Assembly: GCA_041484445.1 (NCBI GenBank)
Contig: JBGPHP010000001.1
Coordinates: 4,150-68,149 of the forward strand
Direction of reading: 5' to 3'
DNA length: 64,000 nt
Origin: Gemmatimonadota bacterium
GTDB taxonomy: Bacteria > Gemmatimonadota > Gemmatimonadetes > Gemmatimonadales > GWC2-71-9
Shown: positions 12,082 to 63,631 of the stretch, piece after piece
Numbering within the stretch: the first letter of the stretch is position 1
Layout of the letters: each line of letters begins with the position of its first letter
The notes under the pieces: model-generated
Databases searched by the model: none
The model's input: only the letters and a program-made list of their open reading frames with translations
Told to the model about the DNA's origin: nothing
Translations under genes and position numbers: made by a program

Positions 12082-12122
12082 CGAAGGGCGCAACCCTGGA
12101 CCGGCGGGCAGCATCTAAGGGG

Positions 12123-12365: not shown

Positions 12366-12374
12366 CAGCGGGCT

Positions 12375-12409
12375 GCGCCACCCCGTTCGCGATCGGAACG
12401 GGGTGGCGC
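12375..12409. terminator. Hairpin with a 14-bp perfect stem between convergent genes
   Basis: GCGCCACCCCGTTC (12375-12388), loop GCGATCG, then GAACGGGGTGGCGC (12396-12409). It lies 9 nt after the plus-strand TAG and 6 nt after the minus-strand TAA. The plus-strand side is followed by TGTTCGTTA. Confidence 0.7.
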
Positions 12410-12415
12410 TGTTCG

Positions 12416-13375: not shown

Positions 13376-13492
13376 ACTAGTGGAGATATGTCGCAGCGGG
13401 TGGAGGGGGGATGTGACCGTCACCACGGGGGCCCGGGCAGCATGCCGCGCTTCCAGACCTTCGCACGAAACCAACAGCTTACGGAGGCGTTC

Positions 13493-14110: not shown

Positions 14111-16570
14111 ATGATGCGATTCGCAGGCTCCGCCTTCCTCGTCGCGCTCGCCACCGTCGCGGCGCGGCCCTCGGTCGCGCAAAGCAACGCCGAGCGCATG
14201 GCGAACGATCACTATACGCGCTCGCACGACTACGATCTCGTGGACCAGCGCATCGCCCTGCGGGAGTTCGACTGGGACTCGACGTCGTTCGAAGGGCGGG
14301 TGGCCACGACGCTCGTCGCCCGGCGCCCCGGGCTCGACTCGGTGGTGCTCGACGCGGGCGCCAAGCTGCGCGTGACGCGCATCGCCGACGCCGCCGGCCG
14401 TACGCTGCGCTTCACGGCACACGGGGATACGCTGGTGGTGTTTCCTGCGGCCCGCGTCGCTTTCGGCGACACGACCCGGTTCACCATCACCTACCACGGC
14501 CGGGTGGAGAACGGGACCGGGCTCACATTCATTCAGCCCGAGGGCCGGGCGCATCGCCCGCGTCAAATCTGGAGCCAGGGAGAGGATCACAACAATCACT
14601 ACTGGTTCCCGACCTACGACTTTCCCAACGACAAGATGACGTGGTCGCTCGAGGCTACGGTGCCCGGTGGATTCACGGCCGTGTCCAACGGCAGCCTCAC
14701 GGCGGACCGCCGCAACGCCGACGGCACCCGCACCATGAGCTGGCGACAGGACAAGCCCAGCGCCACCTACCTCGTGTCGTTGATCGTCGCGCCGCTCGTG
14801 AAGATTCCCGACGCGTGGCGCGGCCTTCCGGTGGACTACTACGTCTATCGGGAAGACAGCGCCCTGGCCCGACGGTTGTTCCACCGCACGCCGGACATGA
14901 TCGACGTCTACTCGACGCTCACCGGCGTCCGGTACCCGTGGGCCAAGTACGCACAGACCACCGTCGCGGACTTCTTCGGCGGCATGGAAAACGTGAGCGC
15001 CACGACGCTCGTGGACTGGCTGCCCGATGCGCGGGCGTACGCCGACCGGCCGTGGTACGACTGGATCCTCATTCCCCACGAGCTGTCGCATCAGTGGTTC
15101 GGGGACTACGTGACGACGATGAACTGGGCCAACATGTGGCTCAACGAGGGCTTCGCCGAATTCATGCCGGGCCAGTACTGGGAAACCCGGCTGGGCCGGC
15201 ACGCCGCCGACGACTACTACCTGGACGAGTATCAGCAGTTCATGCAGATCGACGTGCAGCGCCGTATGCCGCTCGCTTCACTGGGGTCGAACAACATCTA
15301 CCCAAAGGGCGCCCTCGTCCTGCGGATGCTCCAGCACCTGCTCGGCCCCGAGCGGTTCTGGGCCGCCATCCACCGCTACCTGACCGACCACGCGTACGGC
15401 ACGGCCACGACCGACGACCTGCGGCAGGCCGTGCTCGAGGCCACGGGCGAAAACCTCGACTGGTTCTGGGACGAATGGATGTACCAGGCGGGATACCCGG
15501 AGCTCACCGTCACCGCGACGTACGATTCCGGCGCGGCGCGCCTCACCCTGCACGTGCTGCAGACCCAGCCGGACACCGCCAAGGCCGACACCACCGGACT
15601 CCGCATCACCACGCCGGCCGTCTTCCGCATGCCGCTCACGATCCGGATCGGGACGGCGGCGGGCGACGTGGTCGAGCACGCCCAGCTGGACCAGCGGGAG
15701 CAGTCGATCGCGATCGACGGGGTGAAGCGCGCGCCGACCATGGTCGTGTTCGACGACGGCAACGCCGTGCTCAAGACGCTCACGTTCGACCAGCCCACGG
15801 CCTGGCTCGCCACGCAGCTGGAGCGCGATCCCGATCTCTGGAACCGTCAGTGGGTGATCGAGCGCCTCGCCTCGCGCCGCGCCGACTCTGCGGCCGGGGC
15901 GGCGCTGGCCCGGGCGGCGGTCTCGGCGGACTACTTCCTGACGCGGGTGCAGGCGACGGAAGCACTCGACAGCGCACCCGCCGCGGTGGCGCTGCCGGCG
16001 CTCGAGCGCGCCCTGGCGGATAGCTCCGCGCAGGTCCGGGCCGCGGCTGTGACTGCGCTCGGCAAGATCGGCGGGGAACGCGCCATGGCACTCGCGCGCG
16101 GCGCGTGGACTCGCGATGCGAGCTACGAAGTCCGGGGCCACGCGCTGACCGCCCTCGCACGGCTCGACACTGCGGGCCGCCACGCGCTCATCGCCCAGGG
16201 CCTCGCCACTCGTTCCTACCGGGACGCCATCGTGAACGGTGCGCTGGGCGCGATCCTCGAGGCGAACGACACGACGTTCATTCCGCAGGTGGACAGCGCG
16301 GCCGGCAACGCCATCGAGCCGTCGTTCGTGCTCGCGATTCTCGGCGCCCGCGGCAACACCCGCGCGCTCGACCTCCTCGTGGGTCACCTGAACGACGACC
16401 GGGCCGGTGTGCGGCGGTGGGCGCTGATCGCCATCGAGAACGCACTCCCCCCTGAGGTTGCTCAGACCCGGCTCGCCGCGGTGCGCGACCGGCTCACCCA
16501 CCCCGACACGCAGCAGGCGGTGACGGAAGCACTCGATCGCTTGTCTAGAGGGAGCAGTCCGCACCAGTAA
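14111..16570 (+). CDS. M1 family aminopeptidase (aminopeptidase N-like) with C-terminal HEAT-like repeats
   Basis: GGMEN exopeptidase motif (FGGMENVS). Zinc motif HELSHQWFGDYVTTMNWANMWLNEGFAEF (HExxH-18-E). Signal peptide present. GGAG lies before the ATG. Confidence 0.92.
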   Translation: MMRFAGSAFLVALATVAARPSVAQSNAERMANDHYTRSHDYDLVDQRIALREFDWDSTSFEGRVATTLVARRPGLDSVVLDAGAKLRVTRIADAAGRTLRFTAHGDTLVVFPAARVAFGDTTRFTITYHGRVENGTGLTFIQPEGRAHRPRQIWSQGEDHNNHYWFPTYDFPNDKMTWSLEATVPGGFTAVSNGSLTADRRNADGTRTMSWRQDKPSATYLVSLIVAPLVKIPDAWRGLPVDYYVYREDSALARRLFHRTPDMIDVYSTLTGVRYPWAKYAQTTVADFFGGMENVSATTLVDWLPDARAYADRPWYDWILIPHELSHQWFGDYVTTMNWANMWLNEGFAEFMPGQYWETRLGRHAADDYYLDEYQQFMQIDVQRRMPLASLGSNNIYPKGALVLRMLQHLLGPERFWAAIHRYLTDHAYGTATTDDLRQAVLEATGENLDWFWDEWMYQAGYPELTVTATYDSGAARLTLHVLQTQPDTAKADTTGLRITTPAVFRMPLTIRIGTAAGDVVEHAQLDQREQSIAIDGVKRAPTMVVFDDGNAVLKTLTFDQPTAWLATQLERDPDLWNRQWVIERLASRRADSAAGAALARAAVSADYFLTRVQATEALDSAPAAVALPALERALADSSAQVRAAAVTALGKIGGERAMALARGAWTRDASYEVRGHALTALARLDTAGRHALIAQGLATRSYRDAIVNGALGAILEANDTTFIPQVDSAAGNAIEPSFVLAILGARGNTRALDLLVGHLNDDRAGVRRWALIAIENALPPEVAQTRLAAVRDRLTHPDTQQAVTEALDRLSRGSSPHQ

Positions 16571-22161: not shown

Positions 22162-23367
22162 TCAGGGAGTCCGGGACGACCAGGAGAAGCCCTGTGGACG
22201 GAGCTTCAAGGAGAAGGTGCCGCGCGACCACGGCAGCACGACGCTGTCGCCGCGCTGCTCGATGCGCTCCACCGGCACCCGCACCCCGCCCACCACGGCG
22301 CGCACCACGCGGCCGTGCTCCACGGCGATCGTGAAGGCCCCGGCGGGGTCGGAGGCGTGCACCACGAAATAGGACGGTACGAGGGCGCCGGGGCGCAGGG
22401 CATCGAGTGTCCCCGGCAACAACGCCTCTCCGGCGACGGCGAGCAGCGCCGCGGTGATTCCGCCGCCGGTGGCGAGCGCGGCCAAGCCCCGCCCCGCCGG
22501 GACGCGGGGGCCAGGCCGGGTCAGCCGCTCGAGTCGGGCCGCGAGGGATCCTCCGGTCGCCGCGAGCGCCGGTGCCGTCGCGTCCGCGCGCAATACCTCG
22601 AGTCGCGCCAGGGCGCGGGCATACGTGCGCGGATCCCCCACCGCCCGGACGGCGATTTCGTCGCAGCTCGCTTCCCGCTCGTGCCGCACAGCGCCCGATA
22701 CCCACCACCCGGCGGGATGGAAGCACAGCAACGACTCCACCAGCACCTGGATCAGGTTGGCCAGGCCATCGTGGCGTCGCACGTGTCCCAGCTCGTGCGC
22801 CAGGATCGCCTCGAGCTCACGGGCCTCGAGGGGGGCCAGCGTGGTGGGGATGAGGATGCGTGGGCGCCGCGTGCCGATCAGCGTCGGCACGGTCACGGCG
22901 CTCGAGAGGGCGATCGCCACGCGACGGTCGACGCCGACGCGGTGCGCGGCGCGAGCGAGGGCGTCGATCCATAGCTGCGGCGCGGGCTGCGTGCCCCCTC
23001 GACCGAGTCGAGCGGTCAGCCACCAGCCGCCGATCCAGCGCACCAGCATGATGGCCGCCAGCACGACCCACACCGCGGCGAGCCAGCGAGCCGCGGGCGT
23101 GAGCGCGTCGTACACGCCGGCCAGCAGCGCCGGGGCGGCCGCCGCTCCGCCGACCGCGAGCGACGGCCGATGCCGGCCGGCCCAGGCGAGGTAGCCTGCG
23201 TCGAGTACGGGGAGCAGCAGGAGCAGTAGCAGCGTCGCGTACGCCGCGGCGTAGCGCACCCGCGCGCCCAGCCCCCCGACCCCGAGTCCGAGCGCCAGTC
23301 CGCCGGCCAGGAGTACCGCCTGCCAGCTGAAGTGGACGAGCGCCCATCCCCACAGGGCGAGGCTCAC
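22162..23367 (-). CDS. BlaR1-like M56 family membrane sensor-peptidase
   Basis: 401 aa, multi-TM. M56 zinc motif ILAHELGHVRRHD. 4-nt overlap (ATGA-type) with the upstream BlaI-like gene. Confidence 0.88.
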   Translation of the reverse strand: MSLALWGWALVHFSWQAVLLAGGLALGLGVGGLGARVRYAAAYATLLLLLLLPVLDAGYLAWAGRHRPSLAVGGAAAAPALLAGVYDALTPAARWLAAVWVVLAAIMLVRWIGGWWLTARLGRGGTQPAPQLWIDALARAAHRVGVDRRVAIALSSAVTVPTLIGTRRPRILIPTTLAPLEARELEAILAHELGHVRRHDGLANLIQVLVESLLCFHPAGWWVSGAVRHEREASCDEIAVRAVGDPRTYARALARLEVLRADATAPALAATGGSLAARLERLTRPGPRVPAGRGLAALATGGGITAALLAVAGEALLPGTLDALRPGALVPSYFVVHASDPAGAFTIAVEHGRVVRAVVGGVRVPVERIEQRGDSVVLPWSRGTFSLKLRPQGFSWSSRTP

Positions 23368-23756
23368 GTGCGCTCCCGGTCCAGACGAGCGAGCAGCGCG
23401 CGCACTGCCGCCAGCTCGGCGCCGCGCGCCGGCCGGCTCGACAGCGCCCGCAGCGCGAGTCGCGCGGCCGAACCGCCGAACGCGCGCAGGGCGAGGTCGT
23501 CCACCAAGCGCCGTTGTGTGCGCTCCGAGGGCTCGGCGGCGGCGTAGATGTGGGTGCGCGACGACTTCTCGCGCGACACGAGCCCCTTGGCGTGCATGAT
23601 CTGGAGCAGTTTCAGCACGGTCGTGTACGCCGTGTCCTGTCCCCGTCCCAGGGCGACGCGGACGTCACGAACGGTGCTCGGGCCCCGGGTCCACAGGACC
23701 CCGAGGATCTCGAGCTCCGCCCCGGTGGGAAGCGGCGGCCCGCGTCGCGCTGTCAT
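23364..23756 (-). CDS. BlaI/MecI/CopY family transcriptional repressor
   Basis: 130 aa. Winged-helix N-terminus ELEILGVLWTRGPSTVRDV...YTTVLKLLQIMHAKGLV. Paired with the M56 gene. Confidence 0.88.
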   Translation of the reverse strand: MTARRGPPLPTGAELEILGVLWTRGPSTVRDVRVALGRGQDTAYTTVLKLLQIMHAKGLVSREKSSRTHIYAAAEPSERTQRRLVDDLALRAFGGSAARLALRALSSRPARGAELAAVRALLARLDRERT

Positions 23757-29715: not shown

Positions 29716-31623
29716 TCAGGGGGCGGCCGGCGGCGGGGCCCTGAGATAGCGATCCAGGAATTCGAGTGCCGTGCGGTAGGCGGTGAGGTTGTTCTCCTTC
29801 CGGATGAACCCGTGCCCCTCGTCGGGAAACACGACGTACTGCGCCACGCCACCACGTTGCCGCACGGCGTCGACGATCTGATCGGATTCGACCTTCAGCA
29901 CGCGCGGATCGTTGGCACCCTGGAGCACCAGCAACGGGTGCTTGATCTGATCGGCGTGGAACAGCGGTGAAATGCGGTACAACCGCACCGAGTCGTCGGT
30001 CCCGGGATCACCCATTTCGGTATAGAGCGCCGTCCGGAACGACTCCCACCACGGCGGGATGCTGCGCAGCGTGCGGACCCAGTTGGAAATCCCGAAGAAG
30101 TCCACGCCGACCGCGAACACATCCGGGCGGAACGTCACGCCCGCGAGCGTGAGGTAGCCGCCGTAGCTGCCGCCGATGATGCCGACGCGCGCCGTATCCA
30201 CGTAGCCGAGCGTCGCGAGGAACCGCTTGGACCAGACGAGGTCGTCGAGGTCGGCTTCACCGTGGTGGCGATCGTCCATGCGGCCGAACGCCTTGCCGTA
30301 GCCGCCGCTGCCCCGGTTGTTGACGCCGAGGACCACGTAGCCGTGGTTGGTGAGGTATTGCACGAAGGCGCTGTAGCTGATCCGCGTCTGCCCGCCCGGG
30401 CCGCCGTGAATCCACAGGACTGCCGGTGCCCGGTCCCCGGCGCCGACCTGGAGCGGCCGGTAGAGCAGCGACGGGATCTGGACACTGTCGTAGGAAGCGA
30501 ATCGCACCACCTGGGCGTCCACCAGGTTCGCGGCGTCGAGGTCGGGGCTCAGGTTCTGGGTGAGCTGGCGCGCGGCCCCGGTCGCGAGATCCATGACGAA
30601 CAGATTCCCGGGCGCGCGACTGCCGTTCACGTAGTACGCCATCCGCCGCTCGCTGGGAGCGATGGTGATGCCGGTGACATCGCCGGCCGGCGGCGTGGGG
30701 AGTGCCACTCGGGCGTGGGTCGCCGCTTCATAGACGCGGATCTCGGTGCGGGCGTCGTTGTTGATACCGATTACGAGGTATTTCCCGTGCTTCGAGAAGT
30801 AGGCGTACATCACGTCCCAATCCGCTCGCTCGACCGTATCCCGCTTCCCAGTGGCCAGCTCGTAGCGCGCCAGGTACTGGAAGTCGTTGCCTTCGTTCGT
30901 CAGGAAGTACAGGTAGCGCCCGTCGGGGCTGAAGACCTGGGGCGCATGCAGGACGTCGCCCGAATGCGGGCTGATGTGCGTGATCGTCCCACTGCGCCCG
31001 TCACGCAGGTACATCTCGTTGTTCTGCGTGGTGAGCTCGCGGGTGAGCGCGAGCCAGCGGCCTTCGGGGGAGATGGCGCTCAGCGCGTACCCGACGGTGT
31101 CGCGGAACAGCTCGTGCGGGGTGAGGGTCGCGACCGGCATCTCGAACACGTCGAAGAAGCGCCGGTCGCGGGCGTTCGTACCGTAGAAGAACGACTTGTC
31201 GTCCCCCGCCCAATCGTAGAACACCGCCTTGAGACTGTCCCCTGGCGTCAGGTCGCGTGCCGTGCCGTCGGCGGCGCGTAGATACAGATGATCGTTCTCG
31301 TTGCCACCGCGATTCTGCCGGTAGAGAAAGCGGCGCTCGCCGGGGAGGAAGTCGATGGCGAAGATGCCGTCGGTCGTCGACGTCGTGATCTGGCGTGGCG
31401 CGCCGCCCTGTGCCGGTATCTCCCAGGCGTTGAACACCCCGGACCGGTCGCTCGTCACGAGCATCGAGGCTTCGTCCGGCGCGAACGATGCGCCGAACAT
31501 CGCCGTCGTGTTCATGAATTGCTCGATCGTGTACTGCGGAACCGTGCGGTGTTGCTGCGCGTCCACACGGGCGGAGCCGAGCGTGAGGCACGCGGCGAGG
31601 ATGGAGAGGGACCGGGTTGCCAT
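29716..31623 (-). CDS. S9 family prolyl oligopeptidase / dipeptidyl aminopeptidase with an N-terminal beta-propeller
   Basis: Nucleophile elbow GGSYGGYLT. ATG at 31623 gives signal peptide MATRSLSILAACLTLGSARVDAQ. The track ORF extends to 31665. Confidence 0.9.
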   Translation of the reverse strand: MATRSLSILAACLTLGSARVDAQQHRTVPQYTIEQFMNTTAMFGASFAPDEASMLVTSDRSGVFNAWEIPAQGGAPRQITTSTTDGIFAIDFLPGERRFLYRQNRGGNENDHLYLRAADGTARDLTPGDSLKAVFYDWAGDDKSFFYGTNARDRRFFDVFEMPVATLTPHELFRDTVGYALSAISPEGRWLALTRELTTQNNEMYLRDGRSGTITHISPHSGDVLHAPQVFSPDGRYLYFLTNEGNDFQYLARYELATGKRDTVERADWDVMYAYFSKHGKYLVIGINNDARTEIRVYEAATHARVALPTPPAGDVTGITIAPSERRMAYYVNGSRAPGNLFVMDLATGAARQLTQNLSPDLDAANLVDAQVVRFASYDSVQIPSLLYRPLQVGAGDRAPAVLWIHGGPGGQTRISYSAFVQYLTNHGYVVLGVNNRGSGGYGKAFGRMDDRHHGEADLDDLVWSKRFLATLGYVDTARVGIIGGSYGGYLTLAGVTFRPDVFAVGVDFFGISNWVRTLRSIPPWWESFRTALYTEMGDPGTDDSVRLYRISPLFHADQIKHPLLVLQGANDPRVLKVESDQIVDAVRQRGGVAQYVVFPDEGHGFIRKENNLTAYRTALEFLDRYLRAPPPAAP

Positions 31624-31666
31624 GAACGTCTCCGATGGGGAAGCGTCCATCATATCGCCCGGCATC

Positions 31667-32434
31667 TCACCCGGCTACGTCAACGCGGCCCACGCGGAGC
31701 GCCAGGTCCCATCGCACCGGCCGGCGCGTATCGTGGGAGCCCCAGACTCGCCCCAGCTCACGGGTGACAGCCTCGAGCAGCGCACCGCCCCCACCCTGCT
31801 CGCCCTCCGTCCCCCGCAGCGCGGACCAGGTCCCCACATATCCCAGCACGTGACCGAGCGTCCAAGTCTCTCGCATCTCCTGCGGCGGCGTGGGCAGCTC
31901 CGCGAACGGAAACGGCAGCGCGCGGTAGCCGTTCTCGACGTGACGACGCTGGGGCGGCCACAGCGGCCCTAACGATCCGTAGAACGCATCGATGACCGAG
32001 TCGATCTCGGGCGCGATCCGGATCAGACCGTAGCTCACGAGCGCGAGGATCGCGCCGGGGCCGCTCACGCGCCGGACTTCCGCGTAGTACGCCGGCAGGT
32101 CGAACCAATGCGCCGCCTGCGCCGCCACCGCGAGGTCCACCGTCCCCGGGGGAATCCCCGATGTTTCGGCGCTGACCCGCCGGTATTCGACGCGCCGGTG
32201 GGGTGCCGCCCGGGCAAGCTGCTCGACGCTCACGTCGGTGGCGATCACCCGGGTAAACCGTTGCGCCAGACCGACCGACAGCTGTCCCGAGCCGCACCCC
32301 GCATCCCAGGCCAGATCATGAGCCGGCGCGAGCTCGGCCAGGAGGTCCACCAGCGCCGCGGGATATGCGGGGCGGTACGCCGCATAGCCGCCGGCAACGC
32401 GGGAAAAGTGGTCTGGCAGGTTGGGGGTCTCCAT
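31667..32434 (-). CDS. Class I SAM-dependent methyltransferase
   Basis: SAM-binding motif DAGCGSGQLSVGLA. 255 aa. Confidence 0.85.
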   Translation of the reverse strand: METPNLPDHFSRVAGGYAAYRPAYPAALVDLLAELAPAHDLAWDAGCGSGQLSVGLAQRFTRVIATDVSVEQLARAAPHRRVEYRRVSAETSGIPPGTVDLAVAAQAAHWFDLPAYYAEVRRVSGPGAILALVSYGLIRIAPEIDSVIDAFYGSLGPLWPPQRRHVENGYRALPFPFAELPTPPQEMRETWTLGHVLGYVGTWSALRGTEGEQGGGGALLEAVTRELGRVWGSHDTRRPVRWDLALRVGRVDVAG

Positions 32435-32527
32435 CGGTTACCCGGATACCATAGCTCGATTCCGGCCGGCTCCAAACCGGGCGCCGGCTACCGGCATCGA
32501 ATCATCGAACCTTTGGGAGCCGCCCCC

Positions 32528-34390
32528 ATGTCGAGACCGATCGCCGCTATCGCCATCCTCGCCGCCCTGGTGCCGCTCGCCGGGCGCCTGGTCGCTCAGC
32601 ATCCCCTGCACCATCCGGTCGATGCCGTCGAAATCCGCTACGCCGCGTCGCAGCCCGTCGTCGCGTACACGCTGCGAGTGGACAGCGCCGATCTCTCGGG
32701 CTTCGACGTCGAGATGCGGATCCGCCACGCTCCGGACACGTTCCGGCTGGCGATGGTGGCGCACCCGGAATACGACGATCGTTACTGGCGGTTCATCGTC
32801 AATCTCCGGGTCGAGGGGGTGACCGCCGGGGCCACCGTGGCCCGCGCGGATAGCGCCGTGTGGCGCGTCGTCGCACCCGGTGGCGAGAGTGTGGTGCGCT
32901 ACCGGCTGCAGCTTCCTGCCGCCGAGGGCCAGTTCCGCTCCGCGTGGGTGCCGTTTCTCGCTCCCACCGGCGGTCTCATCGGGGGTCCGCACAGCTTCCT
33001 GTACATCGTCGGGGCGACGTTGGTCCCGGCCCACGTGACGCTGTCGCTTCCATCCGGGTGGGCAATCGCCACCGGGCTCGAGCCGACCGTCGATCCCAAC
33101 ACGTTCTTCGCGCCCAGCGTGGACGTCCTGGTGGATGGGCCGATCCTCATGGGCCGGCTGCGCAGCTGGCGCTTTGCGGTCGATGGCGTGCCGCACCGCG
33201 TGGTGTACTGGCCGCTCCCCGACGCGCGGGCGTTCGACACGACCGCGCTCGTGGCGGGACTGGAGCGGCTCTCACGCCAGGCCGTGGCGCTGTTCGGCCG
33301 GGCGCCCTACCGGGATTTCACTTTCCAGATCCAGGACGGCGCCGTCGGGTCGCTCGAGCACCGGAATTCGGTATCGCTCGGCGCCCCGAGCATATGGCTC
33401 ACCCAGGATCTGACCGACTTCTTCAGCGAAACCTCGCACGAGTACTTCCATACCTGGAACCTGATGCGCATCCACCCCGTGGAGTACGGCGACGTGGATT
33501 ACCACACGCCGCCGCGGTCGCGCGGCCTGTGGTGGGCGGAAGGCATCACCATGTTCTACGCCGACCTGCTGCGGCGACGCGCCGATCTTCCGAGCTACGA
33601 CTCCACGCGGGCCACCCACCTCGCGGGGTTGATCACGCGCTACCGGGCGAGTCCCGGGAATGCGCGATTCTCTCCTGAAAGCGTGAGCGTCGTGTCCTAC
33701 GGCGCCCCGCCGGGGGTTCTCGGAGACTACAGCGCGAGCGTCCATCTCCAGGGAGAGCTGCTGGGCGCGATGCTCGATTTCATCGTGCGCGACGCCACCG
33801 CCGGCCGCCGGTCCCTCGACGATGTGGTGCGGGCTGCGCTCGAGCGCTTCTCGGGTGAGCGGGGCTATGCTGGAGCCGATCTCGAGCAGACGGTCGCGGA
33901 CGTCTGCGGCTGCGCGGTGGGGGACTTCTTCGATCGCTACGTTCGGACCGCCACCCCGATCGAGTTCGACCGGTACCTCCGTCTCGTCGGGCTCCGAACC
34001 AACATCACGTGGTCCCCCGCGCTCGCACGCGATGGTCAACCCGCGACCGATCTCCGCGTGTATGGCTGGGTGCCGTCCGGAGCGCGGTCGGTGAGCCTCC
34101 TCGTCACGAACCCGGCGAGCATCTGGGGTCGCGCCGGCTTGCACACGGGCGACCGGATCGCCGCGGTCAATGGTGCGCCGCTGGCCGACATGACCGCCTT
34201 CCGCACGCTGTTCGGCGGTCTGCGCATCGGCGACACGGTGCGGATCGAAGTCGCGCGGGCGACCGGCTCGTTCCGGACGACGGTCGTCGTGACGGGGTAC
34301 GACCGACCGACGGTGCGGCTGGAGGAATTCCCGCAGGCCACCGAGCGCCAGCGGGCGCTGCGCGCCCGCTGGTTGGCCGGCAGCCCCTAG
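32528..34390 (+). CDS. M61 glycyl-aminopeptidase-like peptidase with a C-terminal PDZ domain
   Basis: ATG at 32528 gives signal peptide MSRPIAAIAILAALVPLAG. HEYFHTWN ... WWAEGITMFY zinc motifs. PDZ-like GLHTGDRIAAVNGAPL. Confidence 0.88.
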   Translation: MSRPIAAIAILAALVPLAGRLVAQHPLHHPVDAVEIRYAASQPVVAYTLRVDSADLSGFDVEMRIRHAPDTFRLAMVAHPEYDDRYWRFIVNLRVEGVTAGATVARADSAVWRVVAPGGESVVRYRLQLPAAEGQFRSAWVPFLAPTGGLIGGPHSFLYIVGATLVPAHVTLSLPSGWAIATGLEPTVDPNTFFAPSVDVLVDGPILMGRLRSWRFAVDGVPHRVVYWPLPDARAFDTTALVAGLERLSRQAVALFGRAPYRDFTFQIQDGAVGSLEHRNSVSLGAPSIWLTQDLTDFFSETSHEYFHTWNLMRIHPVEYGDVDYHTPPRSRGLWWAEGITMFYADLLRRRADLPSYDSTRATHLAGLITRYRASPGNARFSPESVSVVSYGAPPGVLGDYSASVHLQGELLGAMLDFIVRDATAGRRSLDDVVRAALERFSGERGYAGADLEQTVADVCGCAVGDFFDRYVRTATPIEFDRYLRLVGLRTNITWSPALARDGQPATDLRVYGWVPSGARSVSLLVTNPASIWGRAGLHTGDRIAAVNGAPLADMTAFRTLFGGLRIGDTVRIEVARATGSFRTTVVVTGYDRPTVRLEEFPQATERQRALRARWLAGSP

Positions 34391-44982: not shown

Positions 44983-45372
44983 ATGGCACCCCCGGCCCGC
45001 TCCCAGCTCTCACGGCGCGAGCGCCAGATCATGGACGTGATCTACCGGCTCGGCCGCGCGACGGCCGCCGACGTCCACGACGCCCTCCCCGACCGTCCCA
45101 GCTATTCCACGGTCCGCGCGTTGTTGCGCGTGCTCGAGGGCAAAGGCCATCTGCGGCACATCGAAGACGGCCCACGTTACGTCTACTCCCCGACCGTGCC
45201 GCGGGAACGCGCGCGGGAATCGGCGCTGCGCCAGGTCGTCAGCACTTTCTTCGGCGGCTCCACCGAAGCCGCGGTCGCGGCCCTGCTCGACTTGTCGAAC
45301 GCGCGACTCTCCGACTCCGAGCTGAATCGACTCGCCGGGCTCATCGCCCAGGCCAAGAAAGAAGGACGGTGA
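44983..45372 (+). CDS. BlaI/MecI/CopY family transcriptional repressor (second copy)
   Basis: 129 aa with RRERQIMDVIYRLGRATAADV...YSTVRALLRVLEGKGHL. Followed 3 nt later by an M56 gene. Confidence 0.9.
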   Translation: MAPPARSQLSRRERQIMDVIYRLGRATAADVHDALPDRPSYSTVRALLRVLEGKGHLRHIEDGPRYVYSPTVPRERARESALRQVVSTFFGGSTEAAVAALLDLSNARLSDSELNRLAGLIAQAKKEGR

Positions 45373-45375
45373 CCC

Positions 45376-47853
45376 ATGCGCGATTTCGTCCTCGACTCGC
45401 TGGCCAAAGCAACGCTGCTGCTCGGCGCCGCGGGCCTGGTCACCCTGGCGTGGCGTGCGGCCGCGCCGCGGCACTTCGTCTGGACGCTCGGACTCACCGG
45501 CGCCCTGGTCCTCCCGGCGGCCAGGCTGTTCGGGCCGGCGTGGCGCGTGCCGGTGTTCCCGGCACCCGCGCTGATGGCGGAGCCGGCGCCGCCGGCGCCC
45601 GGCGTGAATGATCCCGCGACGACGACCGTCGCCGGACCGCTGCCTGCTGTCACCAGCGCCACGGCCTCGATCGTGGCGGCGGCACCCGCAGCCGCACGCC
45701 CGAGGCTCGGCCCGTGGCTGATCGCCGTCTGGCTCGTCGGGATGGCGCTCGTGCTCGGAGCGTACATGGCCGGCGCCTGGCGCGTGGCGCGGATCGCGCG
45801 CCGCGCCCACCCCATCCAGTCGCGGGACTGGCTCGAGCTCCTGGCCTCCATCGCCGCCCAACTGGGGCTGCGCACGCCGGTGCAGCTGCTCGCCGCAGCG
45901 GGTCCCGCGATGCCGATGACCTGGGGCATCAGGCGGCCGGTCGTCCTGCTCCCGGCCGACGCGGAGCAGTGGTCCGCCGAGCGCCGCCGGGACGTCCTAC
46001 TCCACGAGCTGGCCCATGTCGAGCGGCGCGATTGCCTGACGCAGCTCCTCGCCGTCTGCGCCTGCGCCGCGTACTGGTTCCATCCGCTCGTGTGGGTTGC
46101 CGCGGCGCGGCTGCGCATCGAACGCGAGCGCGCCTGCGACGACCGGGTCCTCGCCGGCGGCGCCAAGCCGTCCGACTATGCCGGGCATCTGCTCGACATC
46201 GCGCGCACGTTGCGGGCGGCGCCGGTCACCGGACTCGCCAGTGTCGCCATGGCCCGGCCGTCGCAGCTCGGCAGCCGCCTCCTCGACGTGCTCGATCCCG
46301 CGCGGCGTCGCGACGCGTTGAACCGCCGGCTGGTGGTCCCCAGCGCTCTCGCCGCAGCCCTCGTCGTGCTGCCGCTCGCCGTCCTGCGTCCCACGCGCCT
46401 GTCGGCGCATCAGGCGGCCCGGACGACGCTGCCGTGGACCTCGAGTGACGATCCGCAGGAAACCCTGCAGGCGGTGCATCGCGCGATGGCGCAGGAGCCT
46501 GCGCTCCACCATCCAACCCCCGATTCGAGCGGGTGCCAGCCGCGTTCGTCCCGCAACAGCTCCGGCAGCACCAGCAGCTCCAGCACCTCCAGCGAACACA
46601 GCACGGGGCACCGCACACAGCTGCTGTACAAGACCGGCAGCTGCTCGCTGGAGCTCGTGGCGGAGGGGGGATTCCACTTCACGACCGACTACACCGACAT
46701 CTCCCAGATCGATGCCGGCGGCTCGGTCGTGCTGGAGCGACGCGACGGCAACCAGGAGCGCCGCGTGGAGATGCGACCCGGTTCGGGCGGTGTGGCGCAC
46801 CGCTGGTTCGTGGACGACACCGAGCGTCCCTACGATGCCGAGGCCCGCGCCTGGCTCACCGCGACGCTCACGGAGCTGCTGCGCCGGACGGGATATGCCG
46901 GCGAAGCGCGCAGCCGCTGGATCCTGCAGACCCGCGGGCAGGACGCCCTGTTCCAGGAGATCACCCAGATCTCGGGGGATTACGCGAAGCGCCTCTACTA
47001 TCAGGAGCTCGTGGCCGATGGCCGGTTGGATCCAGCCGGCGTCGCGAGAGTCGTGACACAGGCGGGGAGCGAGATCTCCAGCGACTATGACCTGGCGGAG
47101 ATCCTGGTGCTCGTGGCGGCCCGCTACCCATTGAGCGAGCCCTCCCGCACCGCCTTCGTGACCGCGGCCGATCACATCCAGTCCGATTATGACCGCCACC
47201 GGGTGCTCGCGGTGGTGCTGGCCGGGAAGAGCCTGCCCGATGAGCTCGCGACCGCCGTCCTGGGGTCAGCCGGTCATATCGAGTCGGACTACGACCTCGC
47301 CGAAGTGCTCATCGTGCTCATCCAGAAACACCCGATCACGGCGGCGATGAGCCCCGCGTTTTTCCAGGCCGTAAACGGCATCGAGTCCGATTACGACCGC
47401 CGTCGCGTCCTGGCGACGCTCCTCGCGCAACGCGAGACGCCGCCGGCGCTGGTCGCCGCCGCCCTCACGTCGGCGGGACAGATCTCGTCGGATTACGATC
47501 GGGCGGAGCTGCTGGTGCAGGTGGCCGAGGGCCCCGGCGTGGATGAAACCTCGCGGAGCCCTTTCTTCGCGGCGGCCGACGGCATCGGCTCGGACTACGA
47601 CCACGCCCGGGTGCTGACGGCCTTGAGCGAGCACGCGGGCCTGGCCGAGTCCGCGGCGGCGGCCGTGATCGCCTCCGCTCGTCGCATCGGCTCGGCCTAC
47701 GATTGCGCCAACGTGCTGGTCGCGGTCGCGCAGCACCTGCGCCTCACGAGCGCGTTGCGACAGGCCTACATCGAGGCGGCGAACCAGATCGGCTCCGAAT
47801 CGGACCGTAACCGCGCTCTCGCCGCCCTGGCAGGCAGCTCGCAGCTCGACTGA
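45376..47853 (+). CDS. BlaR1-like M56 sensor-peptidase with a long C-terminal extension (Ser-rich linker, ~110-aa domain, 34-aa repeat array)
   Basis: 825 aa. M56 motif LLHELAHVERRD. Linker SSRNSSGSTSSSSTSSEHS. C-terminal SDYD repeats. Confidence 0.88.
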   Translation: MRDFVLDSLAKATLLLGAAGLVTLAWRAAAPRHFVWTLGLTGALVLPAARLFGPAWRVPVFPAPALMAEPAPPAPGVNDPATTTVAGPLPAVTSATASIVAAAPAAARPRLGPWLIAVWLVGMALVLGAYMAGAWRVARIARRAHPIQSRDWLELLASIAAQLGLRTPVQLLAAAGPAMPMTWGIRRPVVLLPADAEQWSAERRRDVLLHELAHVERRDCLTQLLAVCACAAYWFHPLVWVAAARLRIERERACDDRVLAGGAKPSDYAGHLLDIARTLRAAPVTGLASVAMARPSQLGSRLLDVLDPARRRDALNRRLVVPSALAAALVVLPLAVLRPTRLSAHQAARTTLPWTSSDDPQETLQAVHRAMAQEPALHHPTPDSSGCQPRSSRNSSGSTSSSSTSSEHSTGHRTQLLYKTGSCSLELVAEGGFHFTTDYTDISQIDAGGSVVLERRDGNQERRVEMRPGSGGVAHRWFVDDTERPYDAEARAWLTATLTELLRRTGYAGEARSRWILQTRGQDALFQEITQISGDYAKRLYYQELVADGRLDPAGVARVVTQAGSEISSDYDLAEILVLVAARYPLSEPSRTAFVTAADHIQSDYDRHRVLAVVLAGKSLPDELATAVLGSAGHIESDYDLAEVLIVLIQKHPITAAMSPAFFQAVNGIESDYDRRRVLATLLAQRETPPALVAAALTSAGQISSDYDRAELLVQVAEGPGVDETSRSPFFAAADGIGSDYDHARVLTALSEHAGLAESAAAAVIASARRIGSAYDCANVLVAVAQHLRLTSALRQAYIEAANQIGSESDRNRALAALAGSSQLD
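46969..47850 (+). repeat. Protein-level tandem array: one 35-aa, seven exact 34-aa and one truncated repeat (I.SDYD...VL...)
   Basis: Repeats start ISGDYAK, ISSDYDLAEIL, IQSDYDRHRVL, IESDYDLAEVL, IESDYDRRRVL, ISSDYDRAELL, IGSDYDHARVL, IGSAYDCANVL and IGSESDRNRAL. The summed lengths (294 aa) run exactly to the stop codon. Confidence 0.85.
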
Positions 47854-47854
47854 T

Positions 47855-49267
47855 TCAGACGATCGGGCCGAACTGGCCCTTGCTGGGCTCCGCTCAGCAA
47901 AACCAGGGCTCGGTGAGCCGCGCCGATCGACGCCGCGCACGGGGCGTCGCGCCGACGCGGGGCTCGGGCCCGGGTCGGTCGGCAAGTGCTGCCGCGGCGG
48001 CGCGGATCCGCTCGAGTGTCACGCCAGCGTCCGCGGCGCGCTCGGCGGCCTCTTCCACCAGCCGGCTCACCACCCCATACAGGCGGTCCATGCGCGGATC
48101 GGGGTGCGTCCAGCGATACGTCAGCGCGGTCTCGTCCAGCTCCCCCAGGTGCTCGCGCATCCACGGCTTCGCGAGCAGCGCGGAACCCGGCGGCACGAGC
48201 AACCGGATGGCGTATTGGATCGGATCGACCTGATCGATCAACCCCTCGGCGACGGTCACGTCCAGCATGTCCAGGTAATCGTCGAACGTCGTCCACGGGG
48301 TGAACGCGACGAACGAAGGCCGCAGCGCGATGGCGGCATCCCGCGTGATGCCGAGCGCAGTGAACACGTCGGCGCGCGTGTGTCCTTTCTCCAGCCGGGC
48401 CAGGACGACGTCGCTGAACGATTCGACCGCCGACACGATGAACAGGCATCCGAGGGCGGCGAGCTCGGGGAGCATGGTACGATGCCGCACCAGATGCTCG
48501 ATCTTGGCCGTAATGTCGAACGTCACCTCGGGGAAATCCGCGTGCAGCGCCCGGGTCACGCGCAACGCATGCCCGGGCCCGTTCAGAAAATCGGGGTCAC
48601 CGAAGGTGATGTGACGCGCGCCCGACTCCACCTGTTGCCGGATGTCCGCCAGCACCACCGGAGCGGGCACCGCGAAGAAACGCCCGTCATAGACCGGCGG
48701 GATGGGACAATGGAGGCAATGATGCAGGCACCCCCGGGTCGACTCGACGTATCCCGCGGAGACCAGCTGTCCGTCCCGCTCGAGCCGGGCATACCCCGGT
48801 GAGCCGGGGGCCCTCGTCCGGCGCGGGAGCGGGAAGTCGAGACGCGCGAGCAGCGGGCGGGACGCGCCGGCAGTCGCCTGTCGTTCTCCCCGACTCACCT
48901 GCTCGACGAGCGAGACCAGCGCCTGCTCGAGCTCGCCACCGAGCACCGCGTGCCCCCGACCGGCCAGCAGGTAGGCGGCGTTCAGTGTGGCGTAGAGTCC
49001 GTAGAAACAAATGAACGCATCGGGATTGAGGACGTGGATACGCTCCGCCGCTCGCACGCCGAGGCGGAGCGCCGTATGCATCGGGACCGAGATGCCGACG
49101 AAGCGTGCCCGGCGCACCGCCGCTTCATCGAGGGGCTCGACGGCGAGATCGATCTGCGCCGGTCGAAACCCGGCGCGCTCGAGGAAAGCGGCGGGCCAGG
49201 CTGTGCCGAGCGGCCGGTGCCCCAGCTCGTAGCACGAAACGAGAAGAACCTCGCCCGGAGCCCGCAT
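47855..49267 (-). CDS. B12-binding-domain radical SAM protein, probable selenoprotein (C-U-A-E-P tail; in-frame TGA at 47894-47896)
   Basis: CX3CX2C motif GCLHHCLHC. The track ORF ends ...LTEPWFC at a TGA. Read-through gives U-A-E-P-SKGQFGPIV and a second TGA at 47855-47857. Confidence 0.7.
47865..47879 (-). promoter_or_regulatory. Candidate bacterial SECIS hairpin (GGGCC-AGUUC-GGCCC)
   Basis: The stem starts 14 nt after the UGA, placing the apical loop 19 nt downstream. The loop contains GU. The stem is only 5 bp, so this is tentative. Confidence 0.4.
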
Positions 49268-49290: not shown

Positions 49291-50979
49291 CTATTGCCGG
49301 CAGGGCGCGGTCGGATCGGGTTTCGGGTGATCCACCACGATGCGATGATCGAGGTCCGCGACGTGGAGCGCGATATCGGCCACGAAGCTCGCGACGCGGG
49401 CCATATGGTCGTAGTCGATGTACTCCGGCTCGTCGGTCACCTGGTGGTAGTCCGAGTGCAGGCCCGTCGTGAAGAACGTGATGGGGATGCCGTAGCGCGC
49501 GTAGGAATAGTGATCGCTGCGGCAGTAGATGTTGGACGGATGGCCGTCGGCGTCGATCGCGTAGTCGAGCGTCAGACCGTGGTGGCCCTGCGTGTTCACC
49601 GTCTCGATCAGGTTACCCAGCTCGGTCGACAGGCGGCGCGACCCGACGAGCTGCAGGTAGGTCGGCGTGCCGCGAATCGCCGTGCCCTCCTTGGTACGTC
49701 CCGTTTCGTCGGCCGCGTCGCCGCGACCGATCATGTCCATGTTGAGCTGCGCCACGATCGAGTCGCGTGACACGGTCGGGTGATCGGTGAAGAACCGGGA
49801 GCCGAGCAGCCCCTTCTCCTCGCCGGTGTGCCAGACGAACAGGATCGACCGTTTCGGCTTGCGCGGCATCGAGACGATGTGCTCGGCCACTTCGAGGGCG
49901 GACACGGTCCCCGATCCGTCGTCGTCGGCGCCGTTGGAGATCGAGTCGACCCGCGTGCTGCCCGGGTGCGCGGCGCGGAATGCCGCGAGCAGCGAGTCCA
50001 CCGTCACCTGTTGCGCCGGCGTCGCCTGCTTGCCGCCGTCGTCGGCCCCCTCGGGACGCACGACGTGGTTCCAGATGCGGATCGAGTCGTGGTCCACGGG
50101 CCGGGCCAGGCCGATGTGATCGTTGTGCGCGCCGATCGCCACGAATTCGCCCTTCAGCTTCGGGTCGCTGCCCGGGACGATGGCGACGACGTTCCGCGCC
50201 GGATCGGCGATCGCGGTGACGGTGTAGCGCACGTCGACCGCCGCGCCGGCGCCGGTCGCGCCCAGCGTGAGCGAGTCGAACCGCGTGCTGAACATCTTCG
50301 CCGCCGCGGCCTGCGAAATGAGGATGATCGTCGGCTGCGATTGGCCCGGCGGGTTGTCGTCCAGGAACATCTGCGGCCGCCGCAGGAATCCCGTGAACTG
50401 GGGCGGCAGGCTGTCGAGGCCGAGCAGCGCCACGCCCCAGGCCCCTTCGATCGTCGGCGCGCGACGGAGCGCCCGCAGCGAATTGAGCCCGCCGGTCGTG
50501 AGGACGACGAGCTTGCCGGCCACCTGTGCCGCCGGCAGCTGGTGGGCTGAATCTCCCATCATCCCGCCGAAGACGATCGGCACTGATGCAGTGCTCGAGG
50601 GCTGGCGGGTGAGCGGCAGGTATTCGGTGAACAGGGCGAGCGGGGCGCCCGCCACCGTGAAGGTCGATGTCGTGTCGAAACTGCGCGTCTTGAGCGGGAT
50701 CGTCTGAAAGTAGGTGCCGCTGTCGCCGGCGGGTTGCAGCCCCATGCGCCGCAGCTCGGCGGCGATGTAGCTCGTCGCCTTGACGTTGCCGGCCGTTCCC
50801 GCCTCACGACCCATCATCGAGTCGTCCGCGTAGACATAGAGCCGGCTCATCAAGTCCGCCGCCGTAATCGCCGAGGTCGTGGGCTGGGCCGCGCGCTTCA
50901 CTGGCAGCGAGCTCTGCGCCCGCACCGGCAGGGCCGCGAGTAACCCGATGAGAGGAAGGAACAGGACGCGGTTACGCAT
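49291..50979 (-). CDS. M28 family aminopeptidase with a PA domain, secreted
   Basis: Signal peptide MRNRVLFLPLIGLLAALPVRAQ. Zinc-ligand motifs GAHNDHIG, DDDGSGTV and GEEKGLLGS. Confidence 0.9.
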   Translation of the reverse strand: MRNRVLFLPLIGLLAALPVRAQSSLPVKRAAQPTTSAITAADLMSRLYVYADDSMMGREAGTAGNVKATSYIAAELRRMGLQPAGDSGTYFQTIPLKTRSFDTTSTFTVAGAPLALFTEYLPLTRQPSSTASVPIVFGGMMGDSAHQLPAAQVAGKLVVLTTGGLNSLRALRRAPTIEGAWGVALLGLDSLPPQFTGFLRRPQMFLDDNPPGQSQPTIILISQAAAAKMFSTRFDSLTLGATGAGAAVDVRYTVTAIADPARNVVAIVPGSDPKLKGEFVAIGAHNDHIGLARPVDHDSIRIWNHVVRPEGADDGGKQATPAQQVTVDSLLAAFRAAHPGSTRVDSISNGADDDGSGTVSALEVAEHIVSMPRKPKRSILFVWHTGEEKGLLGSRFFTDHPTVSRDSIVAQLNMDMIGRGDAADETGRTKEGTAIRGTPTYLQLVGSRRLSTELGNLIETVNTQGHHGLTLDYAIDADGHPSNIYCRSDHYSYARYGIPITFFTTGLHSDYHQVTDEPEYIDYDHMARVASFVADIALHVADLDHRIVVDHPKPDPTAPCRQ

Positions 50980-62430: not shown

Positions 62431-63258
62431 TCAGGCTGCAGGTTGCAACGGCTTGGTCGCCCGCACGAACGCACCCATCACCCGGCCGCCGATCTCACGG
62501 GCCAGGACCTCCGCGTCGAGCCCCGCGCCGGCGAGGAAGGCCCGCGCGTCTTCGAACGCATAGACGCGGGTCGGCTCGATCGCCACGTCCGTGAACCCGC
62601 TTGCGGCCAATAGCCCCGCGAACTCCTTCTCCTCAAGGGCCCCGGCGATGCACCCGACCCACAGCTCCATGCTGCGCCGTACCTCGGCGGGAAGCGTCCC
62701 TTGGACGACGACATCCGACACCGCGAAGTGGCCCCCGGGCTTCAGCACACGAAACGCTTCCGCCAACACCCGCTGCTTGTCGGCAGCGAGGTTGATCACG
62801 CAGTTCGAGATGATCACATCGATCGAGACGTCGGGGAGCGGGATGTGCTCGATGTCGCCCTTGAGGAACTCGACGTTGGTGACGCCGGCCTTCCGCTGGT
62901 TCTCACGCGCCAGGGCGAGCATCTCGTCCGTCATGTCGAGCCCGTACGCCTTCCCGCCCGGGGCCACACGCCGGGCGGACAGCAGGACGTCGATTCCGCC
63001 GCCCGACCCGAGGTCGAGGACGACGTCGCCCGGCTTGAGCTCCGCGAGTGCGGTCGGGTTGCCGCAGCCCAGGGAGGCAAGAACGGCGGTCTCGGGTAGG
63101 ACGCCCTTGTCTTCGGCCGTGTACAGATCGGTAGTGACGGGATCGCAACAGTCGCCGGCGGCCGCAGCCCCGCAACAGCTCGACCCCGAGCCGGCGAGCA
63201 CCCGCAGCGCCGCCTGGCCGTACTTCTCACGTACCGTGTCTTTGATCGCGTCGCTCAT
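62431..63258 (-). CDS. arsM: Arsenite S-adenosylmethionine methyltransferase ArsM
   Basis: AGGAG lies 7 nt before the ATG at 63258. N-terminal Cys cluster SCCGAAAAGDCC, SAM motif VLDLGSGGGID, and conserved WVGCIAGA Cys. Confidence 0.9.
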   Translation of the reverse strand: MSDAIKDTVREKYGQAALRVLAGSGSSCCGAAAAGDCCDPVTTDLYTAEDKGVLPETAVLASLGCGNPTALAELKPGDVVLDLGSGGGIDVLLSARRVAPGGKAYGLDMTDEMLALARENQRKAGVTNVEFLKGDIEHIPLPDVSIDVIISNCVINLAADKQRVLAEAFRVLKPGGHFAVSDVVVQGTLPAEVRRSMELWVGCIAGALEEKEFAGLLAASGFTDVAIEPTRVYAFEDARAFLAGAGLDAEVLAREIGGRVMGAFVRATKPLQPAA

Positions 63259-63271
63259 GGTCTGCTCCTGT

Positions 63272-63287
63272 ATCAAGAAACGTTGAT
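63272..63287 (-). promoter_or_regulatory. Inverted repeat ATCAA-N6-TTGAT between arsR and arsM (putative second ArsR site)
   Basis: The plus strand reads ATCAAGAAACGTTGAT. It has the same half-sites and spacing as the palindrome upstream of arsR and sits between a T8 tract and the arsM Shine-Dalgarno sequence. Confidence 0.5.
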
Positions 63288-63304
63288 GTATCGATGAAAA
63301 AAAA

Positions 63305-63631
63305 CTATGAACAGCAGGCCGTCTCACAGCTGCCCGCGTGCTTGCCGGGCCGCACCGCCGCGGCGAACGCCGCGATCTCATCTAGGGCTTCGCGGTTCAA
63401 CGAGTAGTGCACCCAGCGCCCGTCCCTGCGGTCGGTGACGAACCCCGAGTCCTTGAGAACGCGGAGGTGAAACGAGAGGCGGGACTGTTGCGCACCCAGC
63501 ACGTTCTGCAGCTCGCACACGCACCGTTCGCCGTGCGAGAGCATCCGCACGATTTCGACCCGGGTGGGGTCAGAAAGCGCGTGAAACCAGCGCGCGACAC
63601 GCGCCGTGGCCGGGAGAGTAGCCTGCTCCAT
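63305..63631 (-). CDS. arsR: ArsR/SmtB family metalloregulator
   Basis: 108 aa. LSDPTRVEIVRML, the metal-site helix ERCVCELQ, and a wHTH. Extra C-terminal Cys cluster GSCETACCS. Confidence 0.9.
   Translation of the reverse strand: MEQATLPATARVARWFHALSDPTRVEIVRMLSHGERCVCELQNVLGAQQSRLSFHLRVLKDSGFVTDRRDGRWVHYSLNREALDEIAAFAAAVRPGKHAGSCETACCS

Follow-up and report, generated by a model that had tools for sequence, protein, structure and literature searches.

We have found that a radical S-adenosylmethionine (SAM) gene on the minus strand of a 64,000-nucleotide stretch of Gemmatimonadota DNA (contig JBGPHP010000001.1, positions 4,150 to 68,149; hereafter the window) is, by its sequence, a new member of the catalogued NF040546 selenoprotein family. 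The 457-codon open reading frame (ORF) called for this gene stops at an in-frame UGA, at which selenocysteine (Sec) is almost certainly inserted in a SelB-mediated manner as predicted residue 458. The product is very probably a selenoprotein of this family whose recoding proceeds through a hairpin at 47865-47879, just past the UGA. The selenoprotein nature of the family is already known, as it is curated in NCBIfam, and the finding would not surprise a selenoprotein specialist; the functional question remains real. What our analysis adds is a quantitative treatment of the selenocysteine insertion sequence (SECIS) element, a sister relationship with the ArsL family with its differences listed, an operon with an amino-acid ligase, and a TGA-type copy in the cultured bacterium Thermomicrobium roseum DSM 5159.

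When the window was read and translated, the ORF was found to extend from an ATG at 49265-49267 to 47894, and its product ends ...RLTEPWFC (also written ...RRSARLTEPWFC) directly before the TGA. Past this codon the same frame continues with GCG GAG CCC AGC AAG GGC CAG TTC GGC CCG ATC GTC (AEPSKGQFGPIV) to a second in-frame TGA, which a single base (47854) separates from the stop codon (47851-47853) of a convergent BlaR1/M56-like gene. An earlier note on this DNA had described the ORF, the first TGA, the C-[UGA]-A-E-P continuation, the second stop and a CX3CX2C cluster motif, and re-translation reproduced all of them at the same positions, the motif being C180-LHH-C184-LH-C187. The truncated protein scores 660.5 bits against NF040546 over profile positions 1-457 of 468, with a curated cutoff of 500. 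Once the 13 read-through residues are added, with U written as C, the score rises to 679.3 bits and the match lengthens to positions 1-467 of 468, so the profile expects exactly the sequence beyond the UGA. Both the family name given in the earlier note (CUAEP/CCAEP-tail radical SAM (seleno)protein) and its suggestion that ORF calling had truncated the protein are borne out by these matches. NCBI already gives several relatives the NF040546 family name, as seen in a database search in which at least 8000 proteins matched at E <= 1e-10. Among the best 120 of these, ...W[FYL]C is the exact end of 103, and another 16 read on into CCAEP....

Homologs were collected by a scan of one genome per species, which yielded 80 loci, mainly from metagenome-assembled genomes (MAGs) of Gemmatimonadales, Methylomirabilota/Rokubacteria and Nitrospirota. 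The closest deposited sequence, from a Gemmatimonadota MAG, is 91% identical. Codons were compared in 79 sequences, comprising 78 homologous loci and the window. The codon at the UGA site is TGA in 59 of them (window included) and TGC or TGT in the other 20, and it is never Trp or any other sense codon. The codons that follow read AEP[T/S]xxQ in the TGA group and the Cys group alike, and the homologs, to which the earlier note had pointed as a check, hence do not uniformly end at ...WFC. Parsimony on a neighbour-joining tree of the core domain places at least four Sec/Cys switches within the family. A UGA that alternates with Cys and is followed by a conserved, translated peptide is the pattern that classically marks a selenoprotein. 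Of the window's 40 confident genes, 26 end at TGA as an ordinary stop, more than at any other stop codon, which indicates that the genetic code is standard and that the recoding is local and site-specific. In a lone sequence of 69% G+C, 12 open codons past a stop are nothing unusual. The significance of the recoding derives entirely from the comparison of homologs, where it is overwhelming, and not from the window sequence by itself.

The predicted hairpin has the sequence GGGCC-AGUUC-GGCCC, with a stem that begins 14 nt and a loop that begins 19 nt past the UGA, which places the loop G/U 24-25 nt from the U of the UGA. Its local fold has an energy of -10.5 kcal/mol with a 5-bp stem and no evident bulged U. 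Under the bacterial SECIS (bSECIS) model, the loop has 3-9 nt and the stem 4-16 bp, the distance from the UGA is 16-37 nt and the minimum free energy is -7.5 kcal/mol or lower; a G also has to stand within the first two nucleotides of the loop, with G or U after it (PMC13188914). The window agrees with all four bSECIS criteria (AGUUC, 5 bp, 19 nt and -10.5 kcal/mol). Sequences around the site align without gaps. In all 59 TGA forms the stem is 5-8 bp long and carries a C:G-closed loop of 4 or 5 nt, which reads AGUU in 53 and AGGU in 5. The 20 Cys forms never exceed 4 bp and mostly have 0-1 bp. Mean local folding energies are -12.6 kcal/mol for the TGA group versus -4.9 kcal/mol for the Cys group (Mann-Whitney p = 1.8e-10, a value not corrected for phylogeny). 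Compared with synonymous recodings, the TGA group is more stable (median z -1.56, with 27 of 59 at p <= 0.05); no such excess of stability is seen in the Cys group (z +0.44, 0 of 20). Across the 33 sequences with a pentaloop, pairing holds in 93.9% of cells and compensatory changes are seen in five of the six pairs, values that none of 500 shuffles reach; sliding the partner by one column as a control reduces pairing to only 47-53%. In one compensatory example G-C is changed to A-U, with Gly-GGC...GCC replaced by Ser-AGC...UCU. The same helix was independently predicted by RNAalifold. It is kept while the peptide encoded by the stem varies (GQFGP, GQLAL, SQLGS), and the Cys-type loci L017 and L018 encode the same GQFGP peptide with GGG/GGA...GGT codons that break the stem. 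The hairpin that the earlier note had put forward as a putative SECIS element is thus present in every TGA form, with compensatory changes, and lost in the Cys forms.

Several results weigh against Sec insertion at this site. The 5-bp hairpin of the window is no better than synonymous recodings of SKGQFGPIV with local codon usage (p = 0.33), and its 50-nt fold has z = -1.8 against dinucleotide shuffles. As the hairpin is not significant against synonymous recoding, the case for a SECIS element rests on the comparative data. No Rfam match was obtained for the whole window at gathering thresholds or for 47780-47960 at permissive E-values, a null result that is uninformative because bacterial SECIS elements are gene-specific. 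ARAGORN found no tRNA-Sec in the window, which is devoid of tRNA genes, or in 60 homologous loci, and E. coli SelA, SelB and SelD gave no tblastn match in the window and the 80 loci. A scan for in-frame TGA codons with coding signal on both sides yielded no credible second selenoprotein in the window. Look-ups of the window's exact proteins met them elsewhere only on JGI metagenome contigs of 1-3.6 kb. We infer that the source genome decodes Sec. One Methylomirabilota MAG is reported to carry 63 predicted selenoprotein genes (PMC13188914). Many of the TGA forms of the family are held by Methylomirabilota, and the richness of this phylum in selenoproteins lends indirect support to Sec decoding in the family. 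A plasmid tblastn with E. coli SelD and SelA and with Miltoncostaea SelA did not have Thermomicrobium among the matches listed, and nothing usable was found in the literature searched on Sec use in Gemmatimonadota and Thermomicrobium.

Two explanations dispense with Sec altogether. If the UGA were a real stop, the protein would end at ...EPWFC and the likeness downstream would reflect an RNA element, such as a terminator between the convergent genes. Gene callers and RefSeq annotate most members in this way, and the extension in the window is short, at 12 codons. However, conservation beyond the UGA is in frame and at the amino-acid level (AEP[T/S]xxQ), the same residues are unambiguously translated in the Cys-type homologs, and the family profile runs through the extension with a gain of 19 bits. 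The hairpin is moreover kept in loci with quite different downstream neighbors, and a role for it as an intrinsic terminator was rejected on the grounds that it has no U-tract. A true stop is therefore scarcely credible. Alternatively, the UGA may be recoded as something other than Sec, with the hairpin driving near-cognate read-through (Trp or Cys) or ribosome pausing in a host that has no Sec machinery. A hairpin soon after a stop codon can stimulate read-through, and the searches of the 64 kb and the homologous loci found no gene of the Sec machinery. Such recoding is nevertheless most improbable, given that the site alternates with Cys only, that the loop agrees with the SelB-type consensus G[G|U] and lies where it is expected, that NCBI curates the family as a selenoprotein, and that Methylomirabilota, in which numerous TGA forms occur, are reported to be selenoprotein-rich (PMC13188914). 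Even when taken jointly, a true stop and non-Sec read-through are highly unlikely. A weak terminator-like hairpin, GGCUC-ACC-GAGCC followed by CUGGUUUUGC, was seen at 47907-47919 (minus strand) within the RLTEPWF codons upstream of the UGA. Two terminator-like matches occur in this region versus 0.6 expected, and the one at 47907-47919 is probably a by-product of the conserved peptide.

The CX3CX2C motif of the protein is invariant in the CUAEP family and common to the RCCLKC-tail (ArsL-family) protein in the alignment, and Pfam Radical_SAM (PF04055) matches above its cutoff. For the B12-binding-like region that the earlier note had placed at the N-terminus, PF02310 gives 29.4 bits, below the Pfam cutoff of 32.1. 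In 80 family sequences, the tail residues R450, L451, E453, W455, F456, C457, C/U458, A459, E460 and P461 are 99-100% conserved. Outside the CX3CX2C motif, exactly four Cys/Sec residues are conserved, namely Cys12, Cys274, Cys457 and Sec458. The CU-bearing RLTEPWFCUAEP motif ends a variable, Ala/Arg/Pro-rich linker of about 50 residues. An AlphaFold 2 model of a Cys-type homolog (P0025, 74% identical) has a predicted local distance difference test score of 90.2, with values of 56-80 for the linker and tail. The best solved fold retrieved by Foldseek with this model was AprD4 (6fd2; TM 0.67, E = 2e-16), and the structure searches found no solved structure of any protein of the ArsL/CUAEP clade.

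The second-best NCBIfam model for the window protein is ArsL (NF040542), at 285.1 bits over profile positions 1-413 of 423, and other families score 34 bits or less. A plasmid tblastn gave 36.6% identity over 407 columns to a B. cereus protein with an RCCLKC tail. The two proteins have the motifs RGCxHxCxxC, HxTFxDxDFxN, PW and WxHPD in common, and the CU dyad aligns on the CC of RCCLKC, with only this vicinal pair aligning. ArsL makes the carbon-arsenic bond of the antibiotic arsinothricin. It is a CX3CX2C radical SAM enzyme that converts SAM to methylthioadenosine and a 3-amino-3-carboxypropyl (ACP) species, which is joined to As(III); without its tail cysteines, which bind As(III), SAM is still cleaved but the C-As bond does not form (10.1101/2024.02.01.577332; 10.64898/2026.04.29.721666). 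All three Cys residues of the RCCLKC tail bind As(III) (10.64898/2026.04.29.721666). The iron and sulfide content of ArsL is unchanged when the cysteine tail is removed (10.1101/2024.02.01.577332), and so the ArsL tail binds no cluster.

During translation, a SelB.GTP.Sec-tRNA(Sec) complex almost certainly binds the hairpin loop AGUUC (47870-47874), and insertion of Sec at position 458 creates a vicinal Cys457-Sec458 pair on the RLTEPWFCUAEP motif. By analogy, the window enzyme may work like ArsL, a possibility that we hold at slightly under even. The CX3CX2C cluster would, as in ArsL, cleave SAM to methylthioadenosine and an ACP fragment. The Cys-Sec or Cys-Cys dyad would serve as a swinging arm for a thiophilic or selenophilic substrate, binding it and offering it to the SAM fragment held by the cluster, and the family-specific Cys12 or Cys274 might assist. 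The product would be a heteroatom-containing amino acid, which in ligase-containing operons would then be ligated into a dipeptide.

The ligase in question is an ATP-grasp L-amino-acid ligase (PF13535 with LAL_C2 PF18603), which is the recurrent partner of the gene across phyla. Its nearest named NCBIfam families are BacD and DdaF, whose class is that of the dipeptide-antibiotic ligases, and a ligase of this kind downstream suggests that the product is joined into a dipeptide. Downstream of the radical SAM gene, and in the same orientation, the ligase gene is present in 31 of the 80 loci (16 Sec-type and 15 Cys-type) and in 27 of the 44 non-Gemmatimonad loci that have at least 2 kb of downstream sequence; this operon was seen in Methylomirabilota/Rokubacteria, Nitrospirota and a few other phyla. 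Between the radical SAM and ligase genes there is a DUF169 gene in Nitrospirota (18 loci), and in Rokubacteria an ORF of about 93 residues for an NfuA-like Fe-S carrier, which resembles the C-terminal domain of NfuA (GGGCQGCG motif; TIGR03341 97 bits, below cutoff). In 13 further loci, a major facilitator superfamily (MFS) transporter gene is found instead, immediately upstream of the radical SAM gene. No thioredoxin-like or reductase partner is conserved beside the gene in the homologous loci. This MFS-radical SAM arrangement, which is bacterial, was also observed in L039 (DATIWG010000074.1), a contig labelled as Nitrosotalea sp. and thus assigned to an ammonia-oxidising archaeon bin. The MFS gene on this contig has 76% identity to its counterparts in Rokubacteria loci, indicating that the contig is probably mis-binned. 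An M28 peptidase gene (49291-50979) lies directly upstream of the window gene with a 24-nt gap. It was considered as a functional partner and dropped, since it is common only to the closest Gemmatimonadales relatives (L002, L004, L005 and L006) and is best read as lineage synteny. Apparent tandem paralogs of the radical SAM gene in some loci were single-linkage artefacts of spurious high-GC ORFs.

The megaplasmid of T. roseum DSM 5159 was also found to carry a TGA-type member (796591-798027 of NC_011961.1, with the sequence downstream; 11953-13479 of locus L086). This copy reads ...ESWFC-TGA-AEPLEDPSGPVASQVRMVDQPLR and has the hairpin GGACC-CGUCG-GGUCC. Its predicted Sec-bearing C-terminal peptide is ...ESWFC-U-AEPLEDPSGPVASQVR. 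It is annotated in truncated form in RefSeq as WP_012643191.1, and its neighbors encode a pyridoxal phosphate-dependent aminotransferase, an MFS transporter and a large GNAT protein.

An ArsL-like mechanism has to be set against several observations that speak for caution. The ArsL score of 285.1 bits does not reach the curated cutoff of 450, and the CUAEP tail has two chalcogen ligands, one of them Se, as opposed to the three Cys of RCCLKC. No homolog of ACR3, ArsC, ArsD or MIP was found within 10 kb in the 80 loci, whereas an ars island surrounds the B. cereus RCCLKC-tail gene. Neither the 64-kb window nor any of the 18 Gemmatimonad loci with enough sequence contains the ligase, Nfu, DUF169 or MFS partners. 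Nothing in the analysis separates ACP-radical from 5'-deoxyadenosyl-radical chemistry. In the B. cereus island (pAH820_272, 242215-257426; locus L087), the RCCLKC-tail gene is accompanied by genes for a MIP channel, a GTP-binding protein, GNAT, ArsR, ACR3, arsC, arsD and arsA. Located 3 kb upstream of the RCCLKC-tail gene is an ATP-grasp gene whose product is 24% identical to the ligase found beside CUAEP genes. The window has an arsenic-related pair of its own at 62431-63631 (minus strand), in which an ArsR/SmtB regulator gene (63305-63631) is directly upstream of an ArsM ORF (62431-63381). This pair is 13 kb from the radical SAM gene and on the same strand. The ArsM protein scores 358 bits on NF008823 (cutoff 263), has a likely start at M42 (MSDAIKD) and carries SSCCG and GDCCDP cysteine motifs. 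With the model for ArsM of the arsinothricin type (cutoff 500) it reaches no more than 153 bits, which marks it as a generic arsM and not an ArsL partner.

The conserved Cys and Sec residues could be put to other uses. In one, Cys457-Sec458 would be a redox-active selenylsulfide on a flexible arm that re-reduces an active-site disulfide, e.g. Cys12/Cys274, while the enzyme carries out conventional 5'-deoxyadenosyl chemistry on an organic substrate. Most Sec residues in bacteria replace redox-active Cys, and arms of a similar kind are found in mammalian thioredoxin reductase (the GCUG tail) and in class I ribonucleotide reductase (the C-terminal Cys pair). The invariant C12 and C274 are specific to the CUAEP family and absent from the RCCLKC-tail protein, the tail is behind a variable linker of lower confidence, and no arsenic- or metal-resistance genes flank the gene in the 80 loci, all of which would suit such an arm. 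On the other hand, the sole characterised relative uses the homologous vicinal cysteines for substrate binding and not for redox, CU dyads are enriched in metal and organometal proteins (10.1101/2022.07.06.499078), and a thioredoxin-like or reductase neighbor is not conserved. We consider a redox arm somewhat unlikely. The four residues could also jointly act as ligands of an auxiliary iron-sulfur cluster, as is seen in numerous radical SAM enzymes bearing additional Cys motifs. Their number is exactly four, and an NfuA-like Fe-S carrier gene follows the radical SAM gene in the Rokubacteria-type operons. This assignment is nonetheless improbable. Vicinal residues are geometrically poor co-ligands of one cluster, and we know of no established native Sec-ligated Fe-S cluster of such a kind. 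In ArsL, furthermore, tail removal leaves iron and sulfide unchanged (10.1101/2024.02.01.577332).

Returning to the ArsL-like mechanism, a more specific form of it, which is speculative and rather unlikely, is that the CUAEP/CCAEP proteins constitute a second and far more widespread ArsL-type branch. The arm would hold a soft element other than As (e.g. Se, Te, Sb or a persulfide/perselenide), to which the ACP group of SAM would be attached, and the ligase would make a dipeptide antimetabolite. If this is true, it would imply a new heteroatom amino acid and an unrecognised natural-product pathway in uncultured soil and groundwater Methylomirabilota, Nitrospirota and Gemmatimonadota.

Coordinates of the features of the radical SAM selenoprotein gene in the window, and of the NfuA-like ORF in homologous loci.
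Feature	Position	Strand	Basis or remark
Complete selenoprotein coding sequence	47855..49267	-	470 residues (M1-V470 with predicted U458) and stop; translation and NF040546 (679.3 bits)
In-frame UGA, predicted Sec458, directly after Cys457	47894..47896	-	TGA/Cys alternation
12 codons past the UGA (AEPSKGQFGPIV), dropped by ORF callers	47858..47893	-	AEP[T/S]xxQ kept in TGA and Cys homologs
True stop codon UGA	47855..47857	-	Translation
Invariant tail motif R450-L-T-E-P-W-F-C-U-A-E-P461	47885..47920	-	Conservation in 80 family sequences
Radical SAM [4Fe-4S] motif C180-x3-C184-x2-C187 (CLHHCLHC)	48707..48730	-	Invariant in the family
Radical SAM core domain, residues 175-313	48329..48745	-	Pfam PF04055, 38.9 bits (cutoff 29.5)
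N-terminal Rossmann-like, B12-binding-like domain, residues 8-120	48908..49246	-	PF02310, 29.4 bits, below cutoff of 32.1
Cys12, family-specific conserved Cys	49232..49234	-	99% in CUAEP family; Asn in B. cereus RCCLKC-tail protein
Cys274, family-specific conserved Cys	48446..48448	-	99% in CUAEP family; Val in B. cereus RCCLKC-tail protein
Putative SECIS-type hairpin	47865..47879	-	Stem 47875-47879 with 47865-47869; apical loop AGUUC 47870-47874
NfuA-like ORF	L022, about 11530-11810		Equivalent in L008, L014, L029, L032, L043, L049, L050, L052, L066, L069, L072, L074 and L079

The remainder of the window contains two BlaR1/M56-type sensor-protease genes (22162-23756, minus strand, and 45376-47853, plus strand). 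The second of these is the gene that converges on the radical SAM gene, and a BlaI/CopY-type repressor gene (44983-45372, plus strand) is directly upstream of it. The window is unusually rich in peptidase genes (742-2877, 14111-16570, 29716-31665, 32108-34390 and 49291-50979), which represent families S46, M1, S9, M61 and M28. Two Ser/Thr kinases are encoded there as well, along with two histidine kinase systems of the LytTR type.

The correct annotation of the gene is a selenoprotein of 470 residues in place of a 457-residue protein. In 103 of the best 120 database relatives, the same truncation takes away the residue that probably matters most. With at least 8000 proteins the family is large, and it is spread over several poorly cultured phyla. 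Its sister relationship with ArsL, Se in place of substrate-binding cysteines of ArsL, and the ligase operon together lead to a testable hypothesis of carbon-heteroatom bond formation, and T. roseum DSM 5159, which is cultured, completely sequenced and in possession of a TGA-type copy, provides an experimental handle. The NF040546 family has been cited, as uncharacterised, among selenoproteins with a CU motif (10.1101/2022.07.06.499078), and this was the only relevant paper for 'CUAEP' in the literature searched. CU dyads otherwise occur in selenoproteins that handle metals or organometals, and the author proposes that the pair contacts a heavy metal or metalloid atom (10.1101/2022.07.06.499078). 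Neither NF040546 nor 'CCAEP' is named in the main text and family table of a 2026 review of prokaryotic selenoproteins (PMC13188914), and the family is accordingly curated in NCBIfam but missing from that catalogue.

In comparison with known systems, nothing that defines NF040546 differs in the window protein. The predicted RNA element resembles the bacterial SECIS consensus and E. coli fdhF in being a hairpin within the coding sequence just past the UGA, with a 5-nt loop that has G at position 2 followed by U. The fdhF positions that match the loop G/U are G23 and U24, although the fdhF element has no sequence similarity to the window hairpin. The adjacent Cys-Sec pair is shared with MerB-like SaoL, HgcA and some MerT proteins, which have unrelated folds, whereas the dyad of the radical SAM enzyme is 12 residues from the C-terminal end. 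AprD4 (6fd2), OxsB (5ul3), TsrM (6wte) and MgmA (9ccb) have the same overall two-domain fold as the P0025 model, but are only 16-19% identical and are devoid of a Cys-Sec or Cys-Cys tail; to our knowledge, AprD4 does not use cobalamin. ArsL has in common with the CUAEP proteins an N-terminal Rossmann-like domain, a radical SAM core and a C-terminal tail with vicinal chalcogen residues, and an ATP-grasp gene occurs near genes of both families, while Cys12 and Cys274 are additional in the CUAEP family.

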